A stretch of 64,000 nucleotides of DNA from Escherichia phage teqdroes (NC_054932.1), one strand, 5' to 3'. Counted from the stretch's first letter, positions 1,511 to 59,056 are shown. Notes: generated by a model from the letters alone, not told the origin. Translations and numbers: made by a program.

Positions 1511-2938
1511 GTGGTAGAAATTATTCTTTCTCATCTCATATTTGATCAAGCTTATTTTTCAAAAGTTTGGCCATATATGGATTCAGAATATTTTGAAAGT
1601 GGTCCAGCTAAAAATACATTCAAATTAATTAAATCTCATGTCAACGAGTATCATAGCGTTCCATCTATTAATGCGTTAAATGTTGCATTAGAAAATAGTT
1701 CATTTACTGAAACAGAATATTCTGGTGTAAAAACACTTATTTCAAAACTGGCTGATTCTCCGGAAGACCACAGCTGGTTAGTAAAAGAAACAGAAAAATA
1801 TGTTCAGCAAAGGGCGATGTTTAATGCTACGTCTAAAATAATCGAAATTCAAACTAATGCTGAGCTTCCTCCGGAAAAACGAAATAAGAAAATGCCGGAT
1901 GTTGGTGCTATTCCTGACATCATGCGACAAGCATTATCAATTTCATTTGATAGCTACGTTGGCCATGATTGGATGGATGACTACGAAGCACGTTGGCTAT
2001 CTTATATGAATAAAGCTCGTAAGGTTCCATTTAAACTCAGAATTCTGAACAAAATTACTAAAGGCGGAGCTGAGACTGGAACACTGAACGTTTTAATGGC
2101 TGGCGTTAACGTTGGTAAATCATTAGGATTGTGTTCATTAGCAGCAGATTATTTACAGCTCGGACATAATGTTCTTTACATTTCCATGGAAATGGCAGAA
2201 GAAGTCTGTGCTAAGCGTATTGACGCTAACATGCTTGATGTTTCTCTTGATGACATTGATGATGGGCATATTTCTTACGCTGAATATAAAGGAAAAATGG
2301 AAAAATGGCGTGAGAAATCTACCCTTGGTCGTTTAATCGTTAAACAGTATCCTACTGGTGGAGCAGATGCTAATACATTTCGATCACTTTTAAACGAATT
2401 GAAGCTCAAGAAGAATTTTGTTCCAACAATCATTATTGTCGACTATCTAGGTATTTGTAAATCTTGCCGCATTAGAGTTTATTCAGAAAATAGTTACACA
2501 ACTGTTAAAGCTATCGCAGAGGAATTGCGTGCTCTGGCTGTTGAAACCGAAACTGTTCTTTGGACTGCAGCACAGGTTGGTAAACAAGCTTGGGATTCTT
2601 CTGATGTTAACATGAGTGATATCGCAGAATCTGCTGGTCTTCCAGCGACAGCCGATTTTATGCTTGCGGTCATTGAAACCGAGGAGCTAGCAGCTGCTGA
2701 ACAACAACTCATTAAGCAAATCAAATCACGATATGGCGATAAGAACAAATGGAATAAGTTTTTGATGGGCGTTCAAAAAGGAAATCAGAAATGGGTAGAA
2801 ATTGAACAAGATTCTACTCCAACTGAAGTGAGTGAGGTAGCAGGTTCACAACAGATACAAGCTGAGCAGAATCGCTATCAAAGAAATGAATCCACTCGAG
2901 CTCAGTTAGATGCTTTGGCAAATGAATTAAAATTTTAG
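1511..2938 (+). CDS. 41: gp41 replicative DNA helicase (DnaB-like)
   Basis: 475 aa, GTG start 5 nt after AAGGAG; Walker A-like GVNVGKS; matches T4 gp41 length and sequence. Confidence 0.95.
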   Translation: MVEIILSHLIFDQAYFSKVWPYMDSEYFESGPAKNTFKLIKSHVNEYHSVPSINALNVALENSSFTETEYSGVKTLISKLADSPEDHSWLVKETEKYVQQRAMFNATSKIIEIQTNAELPPEKRNKKMPDVGAIPDIMRQALSISFDSYVGHDWMDDYEARWLSYMNKARKVPFKLRILNKITKGGAETGTLNVLMAGVNVGKSLGLCSLAADYLQLGHNVLYISMEMAEEVCAKRIDANMLDVSLDDIDDGHISYAEYKGKMEKWREKSTLGRLIVKQYPTGGADANTFRSLLNELKLKKNFVPTIIIVDYLGICKSCRIRVYSENSYTTVKAIAEELRALAVETETVLWTAAQVGKQAWDSSDVNMSDIAESAGLPATADFMLAVIETEELAAAEQQLIKQIKSRYGDKNKWNKFLMGVQKGNQKWVEIEQDSTPTEVSEVAGSQQIQAEQNRYQRNESTRAQLDALANELKF

Positions 2939-2968
2939 TTTACAAGCTGACAAGACTATGGTATAGTA
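2938..2968 (+). promoter_or_regulatory. T4-type early promoter (GTTTAC -35, TATAGT -10)
   Basis: GTTTAC at 2938-2943 and TATAGT at 2963-2968; -10 lies between the 8-bp inverted repeat ACAAGACT/AGTCTTGT. Confidence 0.55.
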
Positions 2969-2996
2969 GTCTTGTTGGTTAAATGAGGAGATTGTT

Positions 2997-3179
2997 ATGG
3001 AATTGGTAAAGGTAGTTTTTATGGGGTGGTTTAAGAATGAAAGCATGTTTACTAAAGAAATCACAATGATGAAAGATGACGTTCAATGGGCTACTACTCA
3101 ATATGCTGAAGTTAATAAAGCATTAGTTAAAGCTTTCATTGATGACAAGAAAGTGTGCGAAGTGGATTGCCGAGGATAA
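2997..3179 (+). CDS. dmd: Dmd-like antitoxin (inhibitor of host RnlA/LsoA), 61.5 position
   Basis: 60-aa ORF directly downstream of 41 with GAGGAG SD; size and position match T4 dmd. Confidence 0.7.
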   Translation: MELVKVVFMGWFKNESMFTKEITMMKDDVQWATTQYAEVNKALVKAFIDDKKVCEVDCRG

Positions 3180-3180
3180 T

Positions 3181-3438
3181 ATGCATATTGTTTTATTTAA
3201 ACCTACTCCGTATAACGTCAGGAAAAATACTCAATTCAAAGCACTTATTGCAGATACGTGGGAATTGGTGTTAGATATTCCAACAGAAGAAAGTCCTCCA
3301 TTTGGTCGAGTGGAATTTATTAAGTTTGCTGTACGTCCTACGAAGAGGCAGATTCGTCAGTATAAAAGGTATTTTCGTAAAATCGTTAAGCTAGAGAAAC
3401 AGTTTGTAACATGTGATTACGCAGAAGTTTTAAAATAG
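3181..3438 (+). CDS. hypothetical early protein (61.4 position)
   Basis: 85-aa ORF from ATG 3181 with GAGGA SD, basic C-terminus; the ORF-track start at 3139 is TTG and overlaps dmd. Confidence 0.5.
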   Translation: MHIVLFKPTPYNVRKNTQFKALIADTWELVLDIPTEESPPFGRVEFIKFAVRPTKRQIRQYKRYFRKIVKLEKQFVTCDYAEVLK

Positions 3439-3440
3439 CT

Positions 3441-3473
3441 GTTTACTTTTGTTGGAAATTGAGATACTATATA
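3441..3473 (+). promoter_or_regulatory. early promoter
   Basis: GTTTAC at 3441-3446, ACTATATAA -10 region. Confidence 0.5.
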
Positions 3474-3498
3474 AACATAAACTACTGAGGAGATTATC

Positions 3499-3792
3499 AT
3501 GAAAAAATTTATTTTTGCTACAATTTTTACTTTGGCTTCTTGTGCTGCTCAGCCTGCTATGGCAGGATATGATAAAGATTTGTGTGAATGGTCTATGACT
3601 GCAGATCAGACTGAAGTTGAAACTCAAATTGAAGCGGATATTATGAATATCGTTGAGCGCGATCGTCCTGAAATGAAAGCTGAAGTGCAAAAACAACTTA
3701 AGTCTGGTGGTGTAATGCAGTATAATTATGTTCTGTATTGCGATAAAAACTTTAATAACAAAAATATCGTAACCGAAATCACAGGCGAATAA
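3499..3792 (+). CDS. sp: Spackle periplasmic protein (gp5 lysozyme inhibitor, superinfection exclusion)
   Basis: 97 aa with signal peptide MKKFIFATIFTLASCAAQPAMA; near-identical to T4 Sp as recalled. Confidence 0.9.
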   Translation: MKKFIFATIFTLASCAAQPAMAGYDKDLCEWSMTADQTEVETQIEADIMNIVERDRPEMKAEVQKQLKSGGVMQYNYVLYCDKNFNNKNIVTEITGE

Positions 3793-3793
3793 T

Positions 3794-4426
3794 ATGATTT
3801 ATTATATGCACAAAAATCCACCGTTTAAATACGGTAAATTTCCTGATGCACAATGTTATAATATAACGCCTGATGAAAATAACCGTGGATATCTTATTGG
3901 CACAATTTTTGTAATTGTTAAAGATAACGAAATCGTTGCCTGGGCAGATTTTAAAGGTACAACATATGATGTTAATCCGGTGCCTTTCACATATTACAAT
4001 TTAATGGATTTGGCATACGATTATAATTGGTTTAATCATGACACTTTGGCTCATATTGAAGGTGTAGGATTTGATATTTCATATTCGGAATACACTTTAA
4101 GCCCTATGAGTCGAGCCCATAAAGAACCTGAATATTTTTCATTTAGGAAACGTGTAAACTTTAAACGCAGCACAGAGTATGTCGGTGGAATCTTTGTTAA
4201 AGATAATCGAATTATTCGTATTAATTATCCTTTGAGCGTTAGTCAAAAAGATATTGATGTTGATTTAGATTTCACTGAAAATAATATTAATAATATTGCT
4301 TCTGTGTATTTTGGTATCGATCACAAAATTGTAATATGTGGATATGAATTACCGTTTGAAGAACAGCCTAAAGTAAAAGTTTCTATTGACGATCAAATTT
4401 TTAATGCTTTTATGAATAAAGGTTAA
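3794..4426 (+). CDS. hypothetical protein, 61.2 position
   Basis: 210-aa ORF with internal repeated G-x-I-F/V-V-x-KDN segments; C-terminal IDDQIFNAFMNKG is shared with the next ORF. Confidence 0.6.
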   Translation: MIYYMHKNPPFKYGKFPDAQCYNITPDENNRGYLIGTIFVIVKDNEIVAWADFKGTTYDVNPVPFTYYNLMDLAYDYNWFNHDTLAHIEGVGFDISYSEYTLSPMSRAHKEPEYFSFRKRVNFKRSTEYVGGIFVKDNRIIRINYPLSVSQKDIDVDLDFTENNINNIASVYFGIDHKIVICGYELPFEEQPKVKVSIDDQIFNAFMNKG

Positions 4427-4427
4427 T

Positions 4428-4784
4428 ATGTATAGTTCTGAATTTTCATATTTAAAAATGGAAAAAATTTCATACGATTTTATAGATGAAAAGGTTTATT
4501 ACAGTTTCCATGAACCGCGTTTTAATAGTGAGGTTGGGTTTATTGTAGTAAAAGACAATTTCATTTTAAAGATATATTCGGCATTAAAGGATTTTCACTA
4601 CGAAAATATTAACCTAAAATTTGATAAAGAAAACGTTCGTAATTGTGCAGTAACAATTACAGGAAATAAAGGTACATGTGTTATGCTATCTGATGAAATT
4701 AATGATTTACTAAATGATGCAGAAAATATTACTGCGCCATCTATTGATGACCAAATTTTTAATGCTTTTATGAATAGAGGTTAA
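4428..4784 (+). CDS. hypothetical protein, 61.1 position, paralog of the preceding ORF
   Basis: 118-aa ORF ending IDDQIFNAFMNRG; start 1 nt after the previous stop. Confidence 0.55.
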   Translation: MYSSEFSYLKMEKISYDFIDEKVYYSFHEPRFNSEVGFIVVKDNFILKIYSALKDFHYENINLKFDKENVRNCAVTITGNKGTCVMLSDEINDLLNDAENITAPSIDDQIFNAFMNRG

Positions 4785-4785
4785 T

Positions 4786-4950
4786 ATGAAAACATATAAA
4801 GAATTTATTAAAGAAGATATGGTCGCTGGAGATTCAGGTGGTAATCCTGAAAATATCTCTACTGGAACAACGTCAGGCGCTGTAGTAAATAAAGGTCCTG
4901 AGCAGATTCCTAAAAAGAAAAAAGAGGAATCTAAAGAAAAAGAAGAGTAA
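4786..4950 (+). CDS. small Lys/Glu-rich ORF (54 aa)
   Basis: ATG 1 nt after the preceding stop and ending 2 nt before the gene 61 ATG; below the ORF-track size cutoff. Confidence 0.35.
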   Translation: MKTYKEFIKEDMVAGDSGGNPENISTGTTSGAVVNKGPEQIPKKKKEESKEKEE

Positions 4951-4952
4951 AA

Positions 4953-5981
4953 ATGTCATCAATACCTTGGATTGATAATGAGTTTGCATACCGTGCATTA
5001 GCTCATTTACCTAAATTCACACAAGTAAATAATAGTTCAACTTTTAAATTGCGGTTTAGATGTCCAGTTTGTGGAGATTCAAAAACCGACCAGAATAAAG
5101 CTCGTGGATGGTATTATGGTGATAATAATGAAGGAAATATTCATTGTTATAACTGTAATTATCATGCACCAATCGGAATATATTTAAAGGAGTTTGAACC
5201 TGATTTATATCGTGAGTATATCTTTGAAATAAGAAAAGAAAAAGGTAAAAGTCGTCCAGTAGAAAAACCTAAAGAACTTCCTAAGCAACCTGAGAAGAAA
5301 ATAATTAAATCTCTTCCGTCATGTGTTAGATTAGATAAACTGGCGGAAGACCATCCAATTATAAAATATGTAAAAGCTCGTTGTATTCCAAAGGATAAAT
5401 GGAAATATCTTTGGTTTACAACCGAATGGCCTAAATTAGTTAATAGCATAGCACCGGGAACATATAAAAAGGAAATACCTGAGCCTCGTCTTGTTATTCC
5501 AATTTATAATGCTAATGGAAAAGCTGAGTCTTTTCAAGGACGTGCATTAAAGAAAGATGCTCCCCAAAAATATATCACCATCAAAGCTTATCCTGAAGCA
5601 ACAAAAATTTACGGTGTTGAACGAGTTAAAGATGGTGATGTATATGTTCTAGAAGGACCCATCGATTCACTTTTTATTGAAAATGGTATAGCTATTACAG
5701 GTGGTCAATTAGACCTAGAAGTTGTTCCATTTAAAGATAGACGAGTGTGGGTTTTAGATAATGAACCTCGTCACCCTGACACTATCAAACGAATGACTAA
5801 ATTAGTTGATGCAGGAGAAAGGGTTATGTTTTGGGATAAATCTCCCTGGAAATCAAAAGATGTCAATGATATGATTAGAAAGGAAGGTGCAACCCCTGAA
5901 CAAATTATGGAATATATGAAAAATAATATTACCCAGGGGTTGATGGCTAAAATGCGGCTATCTAAATATGCTAAGATTTAA
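4953..5981 (+). CDS. 61: gp61 DNA primase
   Basis: 342 aa; zinc ribbon CPVCGDS…CYNCNYH; matches T4 primase. Confidence 0.95.
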   Translation: MSSIPWIDNEFAYRALAHLPKFTQVNNSSTFKLRFRCPVCGDSKTDQNKARGWYYGDNNEGNIHCYNCNYHAPIGIYLKEFEPDLYREYIFEIRKEKGKSRPVEKPKELPKQPEKKIIKSLPSCVRLDKLAEDHPIIKYVKARCIPKDKWKYLWFTTEWPKLVNSIAPGTYKKEIPEPRLVIPIYNANGKAESFQGRALKKDAPQKYITIKAYPEATKIYGVERVKDGDVYVLEGPIDSLFIENGIAITGGQLDLEVVPFKDRRVWVLDNEPRHPDTIKRMTKLVDAGERVMFWDKSPWKSKDVNDMIRKEGATPEQIMEYMKNNITQGLMAKMRLSKYAKI

Positions 5982-6178
5982 ATCAACCCAACTAAAGCAA
6001 ATGCTAAATCTACAAATGTATCAAGAGTAACTACTGGAATATTAACACCATGAGCAATAGCAATTGGTGATAAAACAAAATTCCAGAGTAAAATTCCTAT
6101 CATAGCAGAAATAGTAAAAGCTATACGTTTTTTATTACCTTTTATGGCATTAACAAGTGCCATTAATTTTTGTACCAT
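5978..6178 (-). CDS. hypothetical small hydrophobic protein, antisense to the early operon
   Basis: 66-aa minus-strand ORF; AAGGAGGA SD 5 nt upstream of its ATG; stop overlaps the gene 61 stop; two predicted hydrophobic helices. Confidence 0.45.
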   Translation of the reverse strand: MVQKLMALVNAIKGNKKRIAFTISAMIGILLWNFVLSPIAIAHGVNIPVVTLDTFVDLAFALVGLI

Positions 6179-42304: not shown

Positions 42305-42574
42305 ATGGCTAAAAAAGAAATGGTTGAATTTGATGAAGCTATCCATGGCGAAGACTTGGCTAAATTTATTAAAGAAGCATCTGATCATAAACTGAAAATT
42401 TCCGGTTATAATGAACTGATTAAAGATATTCGAATTCGTGCCAAAGATGAACTTGGCGTTGATGGTAAGATGTTTAATCGTCTATTAGCTTTGTATCATA
42501 AAGATAACCGTGATGTGTTTGAAGCTGAAACTGAAGAGGTAGTTGAACTTTATGACACAGTTTTCTCTAAATGA
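42305..42574 (+). CDS. dsbA: DsbA dsDNA-binding protein
   Basis: 89 aa between rnh and 33. Confidence 0.8.
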   Translation: MAKKEMVEFDEAIHGEDLAKFIKEASDHKLKISGYNELIKDIRIRAKDELGVDGKMFNRLLALYHKDNRDVFEAETEEVVELYDTVFSK

Positions 42575-42890
42575 TATTCGTCCGGTCGATGAGACCGGTC
42601 TTTCAGAAAAAGAACTTTCAATTAAGAAAGAAAAGGATGAAATAGCAAAGCTTCTTGATCGTCAAGAAAATGGATTTATTATTGAAAAAATGGTAGAAGA
42701 GTTTGGAATGAGTTATCTTGAAGCTACGACAGCATTCTTGGAAGAAAATTCTATTCCTGAAACTCAATTTGCTAAATTTATTCCTTCGGGTATAATTGAA
42801 AAAATTCAGTCAGAAGCTATTGACGAAAATCTTTTACGTCCTTCTGTTGTTCGTTGTGAAAAAACTAATACATTAGATTTTCTACTATGA
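42552..42890 (+). CDS. 33: gp33 late transcription co-activator
   Basis: 112 aa from MTQFSLNDIRPVDETG…. Confidence 0.85.
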   Translation: MTQFSLNDIRPVDETGLSEKELSIKKEKDEIAKLLDRQENGFIIEKMVEEFGMSYLEATTAFLEENSIPETQFAKFIPSGIIEKIQSEAIDENLLRPSVVRCEKTNTLDFLL

Positions 42891-58143: not shown

Positions 58144-58478
58144 TGAATTTAACTGATATAATTGATAATTGTCTTGAAAATGATACTGGCGATCATAGAG
58201 CGCTTGATTCTGAAACAGCACAGTTCATTAGAATAACTTTAATGAATGATACTCTAGTGAATAGTATTCATCCTTCTGTGTATGATGCTATTATTGTGAC
58301 GAAATATCCAGTTGAGCTTCACAAAAAGATGGCTGGTGCAATTTTTATTGATAAGAAAAACCGCTTTAAAGATGGGCAGAATATAATTAGTTCTGTTATT
58401 AAAAGTATAACTAAACTTCGTCACGAAATTTATCGTGTTGAAACTGCTAAATCTGCTTATCTGGTGATTATGAAATGA
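58140..58478 (+). CDS. hypothetical protein (112 aa)
   Basis: ORF with ATGA overlap. Confidence 0.45.
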   Translation: MMNLTDIIDNCLENDTGDHRALDSETAQFIRITLMNDTLVNSIHPSVYDAIIVTKYPVELHKKMAGAIFIDKKNRFKDGQNIISSVIKSITKLRHEIYRVETAKSAYLVIMK

Positions 58479-59056
58479 AAGCGAGTACAGTACTTCAAAT
58501 TGCATATTTAGTATCACAAGAATCAAAATGTTGCTCCTGGAAGGTAGGAGCAGTAATTGAAAAGAATGGACGTATTATTTCTACCGGATATAACGGTTCT
58601 CCGGCAGGTGGTGTGAATTGCTGCGATTATGCTGCCGAGCAAGGTTGGTTGTTGAATAAACCTAAACATACTATCATTCAAGGTCATAAGCCTGAATGTG
58701 TATCATTTGGTTCAACTGATCGTTTTGTCTTGGCGAAAGAACATCGTAATGCTCACTCTGAATGGTCGTCTAAAAATGAAATTCATGCTGAACTAAATGC
58801 GATTTTGTTTGCTGCACGAAACGGTTCTTCTATTGAAGGTGCTACTATGTATGTAACACTTTCTCCTTGTCCAGATTGCGCAAAAGCGATAGCTCAATCT
58901 GGTATTAAAAAGCTGGTTTATTGCGAAACATATGATAAAAATAAACCTGGCTGGGATGATATTCTGCGAAATGCAGGTATTGAAGTGTTTAATGTTCCCA
59001 AGAAAAACTTGAATAAGTTAAACTGGGAAAATATCAACGAATTCTGTGGTGAATAA
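58475..59056 (+). CDS. cd: dCMP deaminase
   Basis: 193 aa; zinc motifs HAE…PCPDC. Confidence 0.9.
   Translation: MKASTVLQIAYLVSQESKCCSWKVGAVIEKNGRIISTGYNGSPAGGVNCCDYAAEQGWLLNKPKHTIIQGHKPECVSFGSTDRFVLAKEHRNAHSEWSSKNEIHAELNAILFAARNGSSIEGATMYVTLSPCPDCAKAIAQSGIKKLVYCETYDKNKPGWDDILRNAGIEVFNVPKKNLNKLNWENINEFCGE

Follow-up and report, generated by a model that had tools for sequence, protein, structure and literature searches.

The anti-DarT factor AdfA, encoded by gene 61.2, is a small cytoplasmic protein that neutralizes the DNA ADP-ribosyltransferase toxin DarT1 through binding. It is among the few phage inhibitors of DarTG that are known, and its mechanism is poorly understood. AdfA was found in phage RB69, in which an R164H change lets the protein bind DarT1; the AdfA of T4 carries the His form, and T2 has been published as naturally without adfA (PMC11257639). 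In T4, the region that holds the locus has been proposed to be an anti-toxin island (PMC9391042). Here, we analyzed the same locus in Escherichia phage teqdroes (NC_054932.1), a Tequatrovirus (T4-like phage), within a stretch of 64,000 nucleotides that we call the window. Two adjacent open reading frames (ORFs) occupy the locus on the plus strand: ORF1 (3794-4426, 210 amino acids, ending SIDDQIFNAFMNKG) and ORF2 (4428-4784, 118 amino acids, ending SIDDQIFNAFMNRG), exactly as delimited in an earlier note made from the sequence of the window. ORF1 is the known AdfA. ORF2 is a previously undescribed family member with a single domain, and the DNA that encodes the C-terminal tail of both proteins forms a 49-nucleotide (nt) direct repeat.

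A domain shared by AdfA and the adjacent ORF2

ORF1 lies directly 3' of spackle and 5' of 61.1 and the primase gene, and it has the two-domain architecture of 208 to 216 amino acids that is typical of AdfA, with an N-domain (residues 1 to ~108), a C-domain (~109 to 185), a linker (~186 to 196), and a tail (197 to 210). The earlier note had suggested, with some hesitation, that the 61.2 homolog might be the published anti-DarT factor and had associated the region with counter-defense. Both suggestions were correct: the match to Pfam family PF23813 identifies ORF1 as AdfA (Table 1; PMC11257639), and the locus falls within the proposed anti-toxin island of T4 (PMC9391042).

ORF2 has one AdfA-like domain (residues 8 to 100), followed by a linker and a tail (residues 105 to 118), and with 118 amino acids it does not have the two-domain architecture. 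Its match to the Pfam AdfA profile scores 31.9 bits (cut-off, 27) and covers only profile positions 113 to 211. The same note had placed ORF2 in the position of 61.1, which was mistaken, since the true 61.1 is the 54-amino-acid ORF that follows it at 4786-4950. ORF2 has no counterpart in T4 or T6, and our literature search found no paper that mentions it. GenBank entries give it as "hypothetical protein," RB32ORF033c, or HY01_0032; one T2 record labels it 61.2.

Are the two proteins built from the same unit? A BLASTP comparison aligned ORF1 residues 111 to 210 with ORF2 residues 21 to 118 (37% identity; E = 6e-11). The tail supplies much of the significance of this match and of those obtained with hhalign; outside the tail, ORF2 and the C-terminal half of AdfA are only about 27% identical, and the E value of hhalign for small alignments without the tail falls to 0.01. 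Small-alignment hhalign comparisons of the N-terminal half of AdfA with the other families were not significant, and only a larger hidden Markov model revealed the relationship. A tail-less profile of single-domain relatives matched the C-terminal half of AdfA with independent E values of 1e-10 to 4e-7 and also matched the N-terminal half at ~1e-5 (single-sequence search space). The claim that ORF1 and ORF2 are paralogs of one modular family is thus upheld by Pfam, by the tail-less profile, and by the AlphaFold2 models, with two domains in one protein and one in the other.

The AlphaFold2 model of ORF2, built on an alignment of 31 sequences, has a predicted local distance difference test score (pLDDT) of 82.8, with core residues 8 to 100 above 90. 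The core consists of five beta strands, a helix, a strand, and a helix and is followed by a low-confidence C-terminal helix (residues 106 to 115). In the AdfA model (pLDDT, 73), the same order of elements occurs twice, at residues 2 to 90 and 113 to 181, before a low-confidence tail helix (198 to 207). The G-x-hh-V-x-KDN-x-I motif, which the earlier note had picked out as a repeated segment, was found twice in AdfA (residues 36 to 48 and 131 to 141) and once in ORF2 (residues 37 to 47), and it includes an exact 13-nt repeat, TTGTTAAAGATAA, at 3915 and 4194. In the models, the motif is the predicted turn of the central beta-hairpin of each domain. These predictions and profile matches suggest that an orphan beta-sheet/alpha-helix domain, present twice in tandem in AdfA and once in ORF2, precedes the tail in both proteins.

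Searches beyond the family returned little. Foldseek matched family members only, an exhaustive profile search of 1.84 billion representative proteins yielded just 10 clusters, all of the AdfA/ORF2 family, and an NCBIfam search gave no match. Among solved structures, there was none for AdfA or the domain, and the tail peptide matched nothing. We rejected a deaminase relationship. The AdfA hairpin YVGGIFVKDNRIIRINYP resembles the beta1-beta2 hairpin of dCMP deaminase, WKVGAVIEKNGRIISTGYNG (Cd; window positions 58475-59056), and the dCMP deaminase 2hvv was the top match in the PDB, but its E value was 0.14 to 0.35, the hhalign probability was 0.9%, and there was no significant profile or fold match to cytidine/dCMP deaminases with their HAE and PCxxC zinc motifs. 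The resemblance is local only.

The residue that switches the specificity of AdfA lies within the shared domain. Alignment and primer-derived numbering place the equivalent of RB69 residue 164 at Asn167 of the window's AdfA (counted from the MIYYM start), in a helix of the C-domain. When AdfA sequences were grouped at 90% identity, this residue was His in 15 of the 17 clusters, Arg in 1, and Asn in 1; the Asn cluster, with 94 member sequences, is that of the window's AdfA, which thus does not carry the His that marks the DarT1-neutralizing allele. The aligned residue of ORF2 is Asn72, in helix 67 to 78. Because ORF2 is homologous to AdfA, lies in the anti-toxin island, and shares the domain whose helix holds the DarT1-specificity residue (AdfA 167, ORF2 72), it is, as judged from sequence, most likely a binder-type inhibitor with a specificity that differs from that of AdfA.

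The window's adfA is itself a mosaic. Its residues 1 to 60 match the RB69/Mosigvirus type at 54 of 60 positions and T4 at just 25 of 60, and its C-terminal half is closer to T4 (87% identity) than to the RB69 type (75%). Phage Ec_O157kw carries a T4-like patch that includes the His within the same adfA backbone as the window. This mosaicism points to a probable exchange of alleles between genera.

ORF2 is a real gene, given the ratio of nonsynonymous to synonymous substitutions (dN/dS), orthologs of conserved length, and a confidently predicted fold. Alternatively, the 3' half of adfA could have undergone a partial tandem duplication, of which ORF2 would be a decaying, nonfunctional remnant. 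In favor of decay, the match to the AdfA profile is confined to its C-terminal half, many viable phages, T4 and T6 among them, do without ORF2, and a distant relative carries a split copy. However, ORF2 is intact, at 118 amino acids and 75 to 100% identity, in 297 records, its dN/dS of 0.08 to 0.35 indicates purifying selection, its Gaprivervirus orthologs (46% identity) keep their length, the model core is confident, and several lineages hold single-domain members only. The identity of ~27% outside the tail means, moreover, that the split from the C-terminal half of AdfA is ancient. We therefore regard decay as highly improbable. The split copy occurs in locus L049 (3937-4294), where the ORF2-like gene beside a 144-amino-acid member is divided into two overlapping ORFs of 63 and 68 amino acids; the division reflects a frameshifted pseudogene or else an error of sequencing.

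The constant tail and the repeat that encodes it

All members of the wider family end in a hydrophobic and acidic tail of 14 residues that hardly varies (consensus, (S/x)(I/V)DDQIFNAFM(N/K)(R/K)(G/D)). In pairwise comparisons of 14 diverse representatives, the tails are on average 86% identical, whereas the cores share 28% and the linkers, whose length varies from 11 to 37 residues, share 25%. Besides AdfA and ORF2, the family comprises a 145-amino-acid group (phrog_8539) in Dhakavirus and Gaprivervirus, ORF2-like genes of 116 to 125 amino acids in Gaprivervirus, and further, more distant members of 120 to 148 amino acids; in several lineages, only single-domain members occur. A tblastn search with the tail found it at 902 places in 705 phage records, all at the AdfA/ORF2 locus. 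Scans of IMG/VR and metagenomes yielded few extra loci, and one marine match (L033) was discarded as a chance match. Between genera, synonymous tail codons vary (TCT/TCA, GAT/GAC, CAA/CAG, ATT/ATA, GCT/GCC/GCA, and TTT/TTC) with the peptide unchanged, and the primary constraint is therefore on the protein.

The DNA that encodes the tail forms the only long direct repeat of the locus, a two-copy family at 4382-4430 and 4740-4788 (49 nt; 46 of 49 identical; 358 nt from start to start). It is far above chance, because the remaining direct repeats in 3400-5200 are only 12 to 22 nt long. Either copy encodes SIDDQIFNAFMN(K/R)G, a stop codon, and the overlapping ATG of the next gene (TAATATG). Immediately upstream, the DNA of the two copies shows no similarity, and copy 2 is identical to the 3' end of both T4 61.2 and T2 ORF2. 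The near-identical repeats reported in the earlier note are therefore real, but its coordinates were one base too long at the left, where positions 4381 and 4739 hold t and a. That note had also allowed that a 3' module universal in 61.1 and 61.2, with no repeat-linked variation, would tell against an inserted or duplicated cassette. The module indeed occurs in all superfamily members (Tequatrovirus, Mosigvirus, Dhakavirus, and Gaprivervirus) and therefore is not the footprint of a recent insertion, but repeat-associated variation does exist.

This variation became apparent when we compared gene junctions in related phages. Complete ORF2 DNA was present in 297 records, with a junction from sp to ORF2 and no AdfA in 141 (the T2 type) and a junction from AdfA to ORF2 in 156 (the type of the window). 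The N-terminal half of AdfA was found in 485 records, which leaves ~329 with AdfA and without ORF2, including T4, T6, and RB69-type phages. In T4, the body of AdfA is joined straight to the repeat copy that follows ORF2 in the window. The difference between T4 and the window begins exactly at the 5' edge of the repeat, with no similarity upstream and 100% DNA identity downstream. Both allele classes of AdfA co-occur with ORF2; in L040 and vB_Eco_CP, a T4-type AdfA precedes it. ORF2 is thus bracketed by repeats and cassette-like, as proposed, with its boundary at the repeat wherever AdfA is present. T2 carries an ORF2 that is 97.5% identical to that of the window.

Within genomes, the two tails are, as far as codon comparisons tell, partly homogenized. 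Of the 12 degenerate tail codons in the window, the two copies share 10, compared to 6.3 expected from codon usage (P = 0.024), whereas outside the tail identical amino acids share codons in 10 of 27 cases (13.2 expected). In four of five two-gene genomes (the window, L004, L040, and the Gaprivervirus L013), tails of different families differ at only 1 to 3 of 42 nt, compared to 4 to 9 of 42 for orthologous tails across genera. Three variable tail sites are shuffled between the copies in L004, L040, and vB_Eco_CP (L045). In the last phage (OZ034683), a 59-nt stretch with the ORF2 tail and junction is also duplicated in tandem at 2228-2323, which places a third tail before 61.1; its three tail copies are all of the K type. 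Experimentally, T4 amplifies and deletes segments of this locus via homologies of 6 to 10 bp (PMC9391042).

On the basis of these results, we consider it fairly probable that AdfA and ORF2 are paralogous toxin-binder domains joined to a constant docking tail and that the tail DNA serves as in-register homology for the gain and loss of cassettes. The fast-evolving domain, in whose helix the specificity-switching residue of AdfA sits, would be the specificity element that binds a toxin or another defense protein, and the constant tail would be a docking or assembly helix for a conserved partner. ORF2 may supply a second specificity, for a target other than the DarT1 tested so far. Since the 49-bp repeat consists of tail DNA and the stop/start junction and ends every member, it could offer in-register homology to the very active recombination of the phage. 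Any addition, deletion, or swap of members would then rebuild an intact ORF, a tail, and translational coupling to the next gene, giving rise to a population of AdfA-only, AdfA-plus-ORF2, and ORF2-only phages, and occasional gene conversion would keep the two tails of one genome alike.

Several observations weigh against this reading. The excess of identical tail codons is modest (P = 0.024), and in L012, the remaining two-gene genome, the tails differ at 9 of 42 nt. The T2-type junction, which keeps just the final bases of the tail, is located not within the full repeat but at a short homology resembling TGAATA close to where the tail ends, and it is the same in 141 of 141 records; it may represent a single ancestral event and not recurrent recombination. 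Loci retrieved by the tail DNA pattern are biased to intact tails, although protein searches independent of that pattern gave the same tail conservation. The docking role is proposed only from the conservation pattern; AlphaFold2 predicts the tail as a low-confidence helix (pLDDT, ~50), but its placement tells nothing either way, as there is no covariation to draw on in an invariant segment. Finally, T2 without adfN is sensitive to DarTG1 although it carries ORF2, and T4 without adfN is also sensitive despite its AdfA (PMC11257639). ORF2 therefore does not neutralize that DarT1 at native levels.

Two records deserve separate mention. In T2 (L011, LC348380; 1440-1500), a 1-base insertion near the 3' end of spackle leaves it annotated at 92 and not 97 amino acids; the junction left by the deletion of AdfA falls at the TGAATA-like homology that the end of sp shares with that of the AdfA tail. 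An apparent tandem copy of ORF2 in the Yersinia phage phiD1 (L046, HE956711; 1805-2000) was rejected as an assembly artifact, with Illumina adapter sequence (GATCGG..AGA..C..TCTGAAC) and runs of N at the junction.

Does the repeat take part in gain and loss at all? It could be a by-product of purifying selection on the peptide combined with strong codon bias, in which case the three gene arrangements would be unrelated events. This view fits the retention of the peptide across genera while synonymous sites differ, the use of phage-preferred codons at every position of the tail, and the T2-type deletion, which looks like one event and used a short homology just where the tail ends, not the full repeat. 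However, it leaves unexplained why the difference between T4 and the window maps precisely to the 5' edge of the repeat and why codon identity exceeds expectation in the tail and not outside it. Tail DNA also groups mostly by genome and not by gene family (the L013 copies share CAG/GCC/TTC), the tail has been duplicated in vB_Eco_CP, and far shorter homologies suffice for recombination at this locus in T4. We think the by-product explanation unlikely.

The tail DNA might instead be kept mainly as a regulatory element that combines a MotA-dependent middle promoter, a Shine-Dalgarno sequence, and the start of the downstream gene. Both repeat copies fit the pattern TGCTT, 13 to 15 nt, TAnnnT, which has 26 matches in the window against 14.3 ± 3.5 expected, and phage vB_EcoM_Lutter has a "promoter" annotation at both. 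The spacing between the final two codons (AGA GGT or AAA GGT) and the following ATG is that of a Shine-Dalgarno sequence, and AAAGGT in copy 1 resembles one for ORF2. In Mosigvirus, however, the sequence TGCATTT in the AdfA tails destroys the MotA box without any change in the peptide, and Gaprivervirus and Dhakavirus tails vary at GCC/GCT, CAA/CAG, and TTT/TTC. The Lutter annotation is a prediction, and we found no transcript mapping. Regulation as the main reason for conservation is accordingly doubtful, still more so than the by-product explanation, and the sequence pattern suggests that it can be at most a secondary, Tequatrovirus-specific constraint.

The reading of paralogous binders with a shared docking tail can be extended, although we give the extension only a slim chance. 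The tail could be a portable docking epitope that tethers diversifying toxin-binding domains (those of AdfA, ORF2, and the 145-amino-acid family) to one hub, for which a component of the replisome, with its exposed single-stranded DNA (the substrate of DarT), would be a candidate. Tail DNA would then be an in-frame exchange site, equipped with a middle-promoter-like signal, through which phages swap new specificities.

Gene neighborhood and coordinates

Several Escherichia and Shigella phages share 99.6% identity with the window over 3400-5200, and the order of genes is uvsX, 40, 41, dmd, 61.4, sp, ORF1, ORF2, 61.1, and 61 (Table 1). The slot from spackle to the primase gene is variable and lies inside the anti-toxin island (dmd, tifA, sp, and adfA). 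In all relatives examined, distant ones included, the gene right after sp is a tail-bearing member of the superfamily.

Two further genes of the slot were noted. The 54-amino-acid gp61.1 also matches the C-terminal third of phrog_2086 (positions 109 to 154 of 156; E = 2.6e-16) and may be another short gene related to part of a longer one. In the Gaprivervirus DK-13 (L013; 2111-2332), an extra 73-amino-acid ORF with the TifA/DUF7279-like motif ARPTKRQIRKLKK lies between the ORF2-like gene and a 63-amino-acid ORF; judging from this motif, it may be a second tifA-like cassette.

Table 1. Features of the adfA locus in the window
Feature	Position	Strand	Basis
dmd (61.5), RnlA toxin inhibitor, start of the island	2997..3179	+	annotated homologs; PMC9391042
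tifA (61.4), ToxN inhibitor, Pfam DUF7279	3181..3438	+	PF23945, E 4e-20; translation; PMC9391042
sp (spackle)	3499..3792	+	Pfam T4_Spackle, E 6e-45
adfA (61.2; ORF1), 210 aa	3794..4426	+	Pfam AdfA PF23813, 461.7 bits, profile positions 1-211, E 3e-139
Beta-hairpin motif GTIFVIVKDNEIV, AdfA N-domain	3899..3937	+	model strands E38-43, E46-51
Beta-hairpin motif GGIFVKDNRII, AdfA C-domain	4184..4216	+	model strands E127-136, E139-146
AAT codon of AdfA Asn167, equivalent to RB69 AdfA residue 164	4292..4294	+	alignment and primer-derived numbering
Repeat copy 1: AdfA tail, stop, and ORF2 start (TAATATG)	4382..4430	+	repeat search
MotA-type middle-promoter-like pattern (TGCTTTT, 12 nt, TAATAT), copy 1, putative	4405..4429	+	pattern search; Lutter annotation
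ORF2, 118 aa, phrog_4122 (RB32ORF033c/HY01_0032 type)	4428..4784	+	phrog_4122, E 2e-72
Beta-hairpin motif GFIVVKDNFIL, ORF2	4536..4568	+	model strands E34-42, E45-51
ORF2 Asn72, aligned with the AdfA specificity position	4641..4643	+	BLASTP alignment; AlphaFold2 model
Repeat copy 2: ORF2 tail, stop, and 61.1 start	4740..4788	+	repeat search
MotA-type middle-promoter-like pattern (TGCTTTT, 12 nt, TAATAT), copy 2, putative	4763..4787	+	pattern search; Lutter annotation
Gene 61.1, 54 aa	4786..4950	+	annotations; phrog_1823, E 7e-34
Gene 61, DNA primase, downstream end of the slot	4953..5981	+	ORF and annotation

Comparison with known systems

The closest described relative of ORF2 is AdfA itself. 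Both have the C-terminal domain, the tail, and the beta-hairpin motif, and the Pfam score of ORF2 exceeds the cut-off, but ORF2 has one domain (118 compared to 208 to 216 amino acids), forms a family of its own (phrog_4122), and is about 27% identical outside the tail. At the position aligned with the specificity residue, both ORF2 and the window's AdfA have Asn. To the published picture of AdfA, our data add its predicted construction from two copies of an orphan domain and a constant tail, as well as a single-domain paralog that adjoins it in about a quarter of T-even genomes and is the sole family member in T2-type phages, so far treated as without adfA. They also place the specificity-switching residue within the domain common to AdfA and ORF2 and reveal a rare Asn allele in the phage of the window. 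As a caution, T2 is not a clean negative background for the AdfA family.

In design, the tail is reminiscent of the sliding-clamp epitopes of gp43, gp55, and gp33 (PMC2988020), in which a folded body and a variable linker precede a conserved hydrophobic and acidic C-terminal epitope carried by otherwise unrelated proteins. The late-transcription coactivator gp33 of the window (112 amino acids; 42552-42890) ends in ...TNTLDFLL, of the sliding-clamp-binding type. We rejected an epitope of this type for AdfA and ORF2, whose tail reads SIDDQIFNAFMN(K/R)G and not the (S/T)LDFL(F/L/Y)-type motif; the likeness is one of design, not of sequence.

The repeat invites comparison with the shuffling of early promoter and stem-loop (PeSL) elements (Arbiol et al. 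2010, PMC2839356; Comeau et al. 2014, PMC4122927), which serve as recombination sites for insertion, deletion, and replacement. In both cases, repeats of ~50 bp flank accessory ORFs in plastic regions of T4-type genomes. PeSLs, however, are intergenic and combine an early promoter with a stem-loop terminator, whereas the repeat described here is coding and has no terminator-like stem-loop; terminator-like sites were absent from the whole of 2900-6100, and the repeat gave no strong sigma-70 match. Because it consists of the tail and the stop/start junction, exchange would occur in frame and rebuild a complete protein. The microhomology events at T4 dmd-tifA (Srikant et al. 2022, PMC9391042) took place in the same neighborhood, 1 kb upstream, and likewise altered anti-toxin genes by duplication or deletion between direct repeats. 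Laboratory selection yielded those events, which relied on chance homologies of 6 to 10 bp, whereas the polymorphism described here is natural and its 49-bp homology is under protein selection. The cassette polymorphism at the tail is a modest but clear addition, and the locus represents a natural case of a coding segment acting as homology for cassette exchange in a phage anti-defense island.

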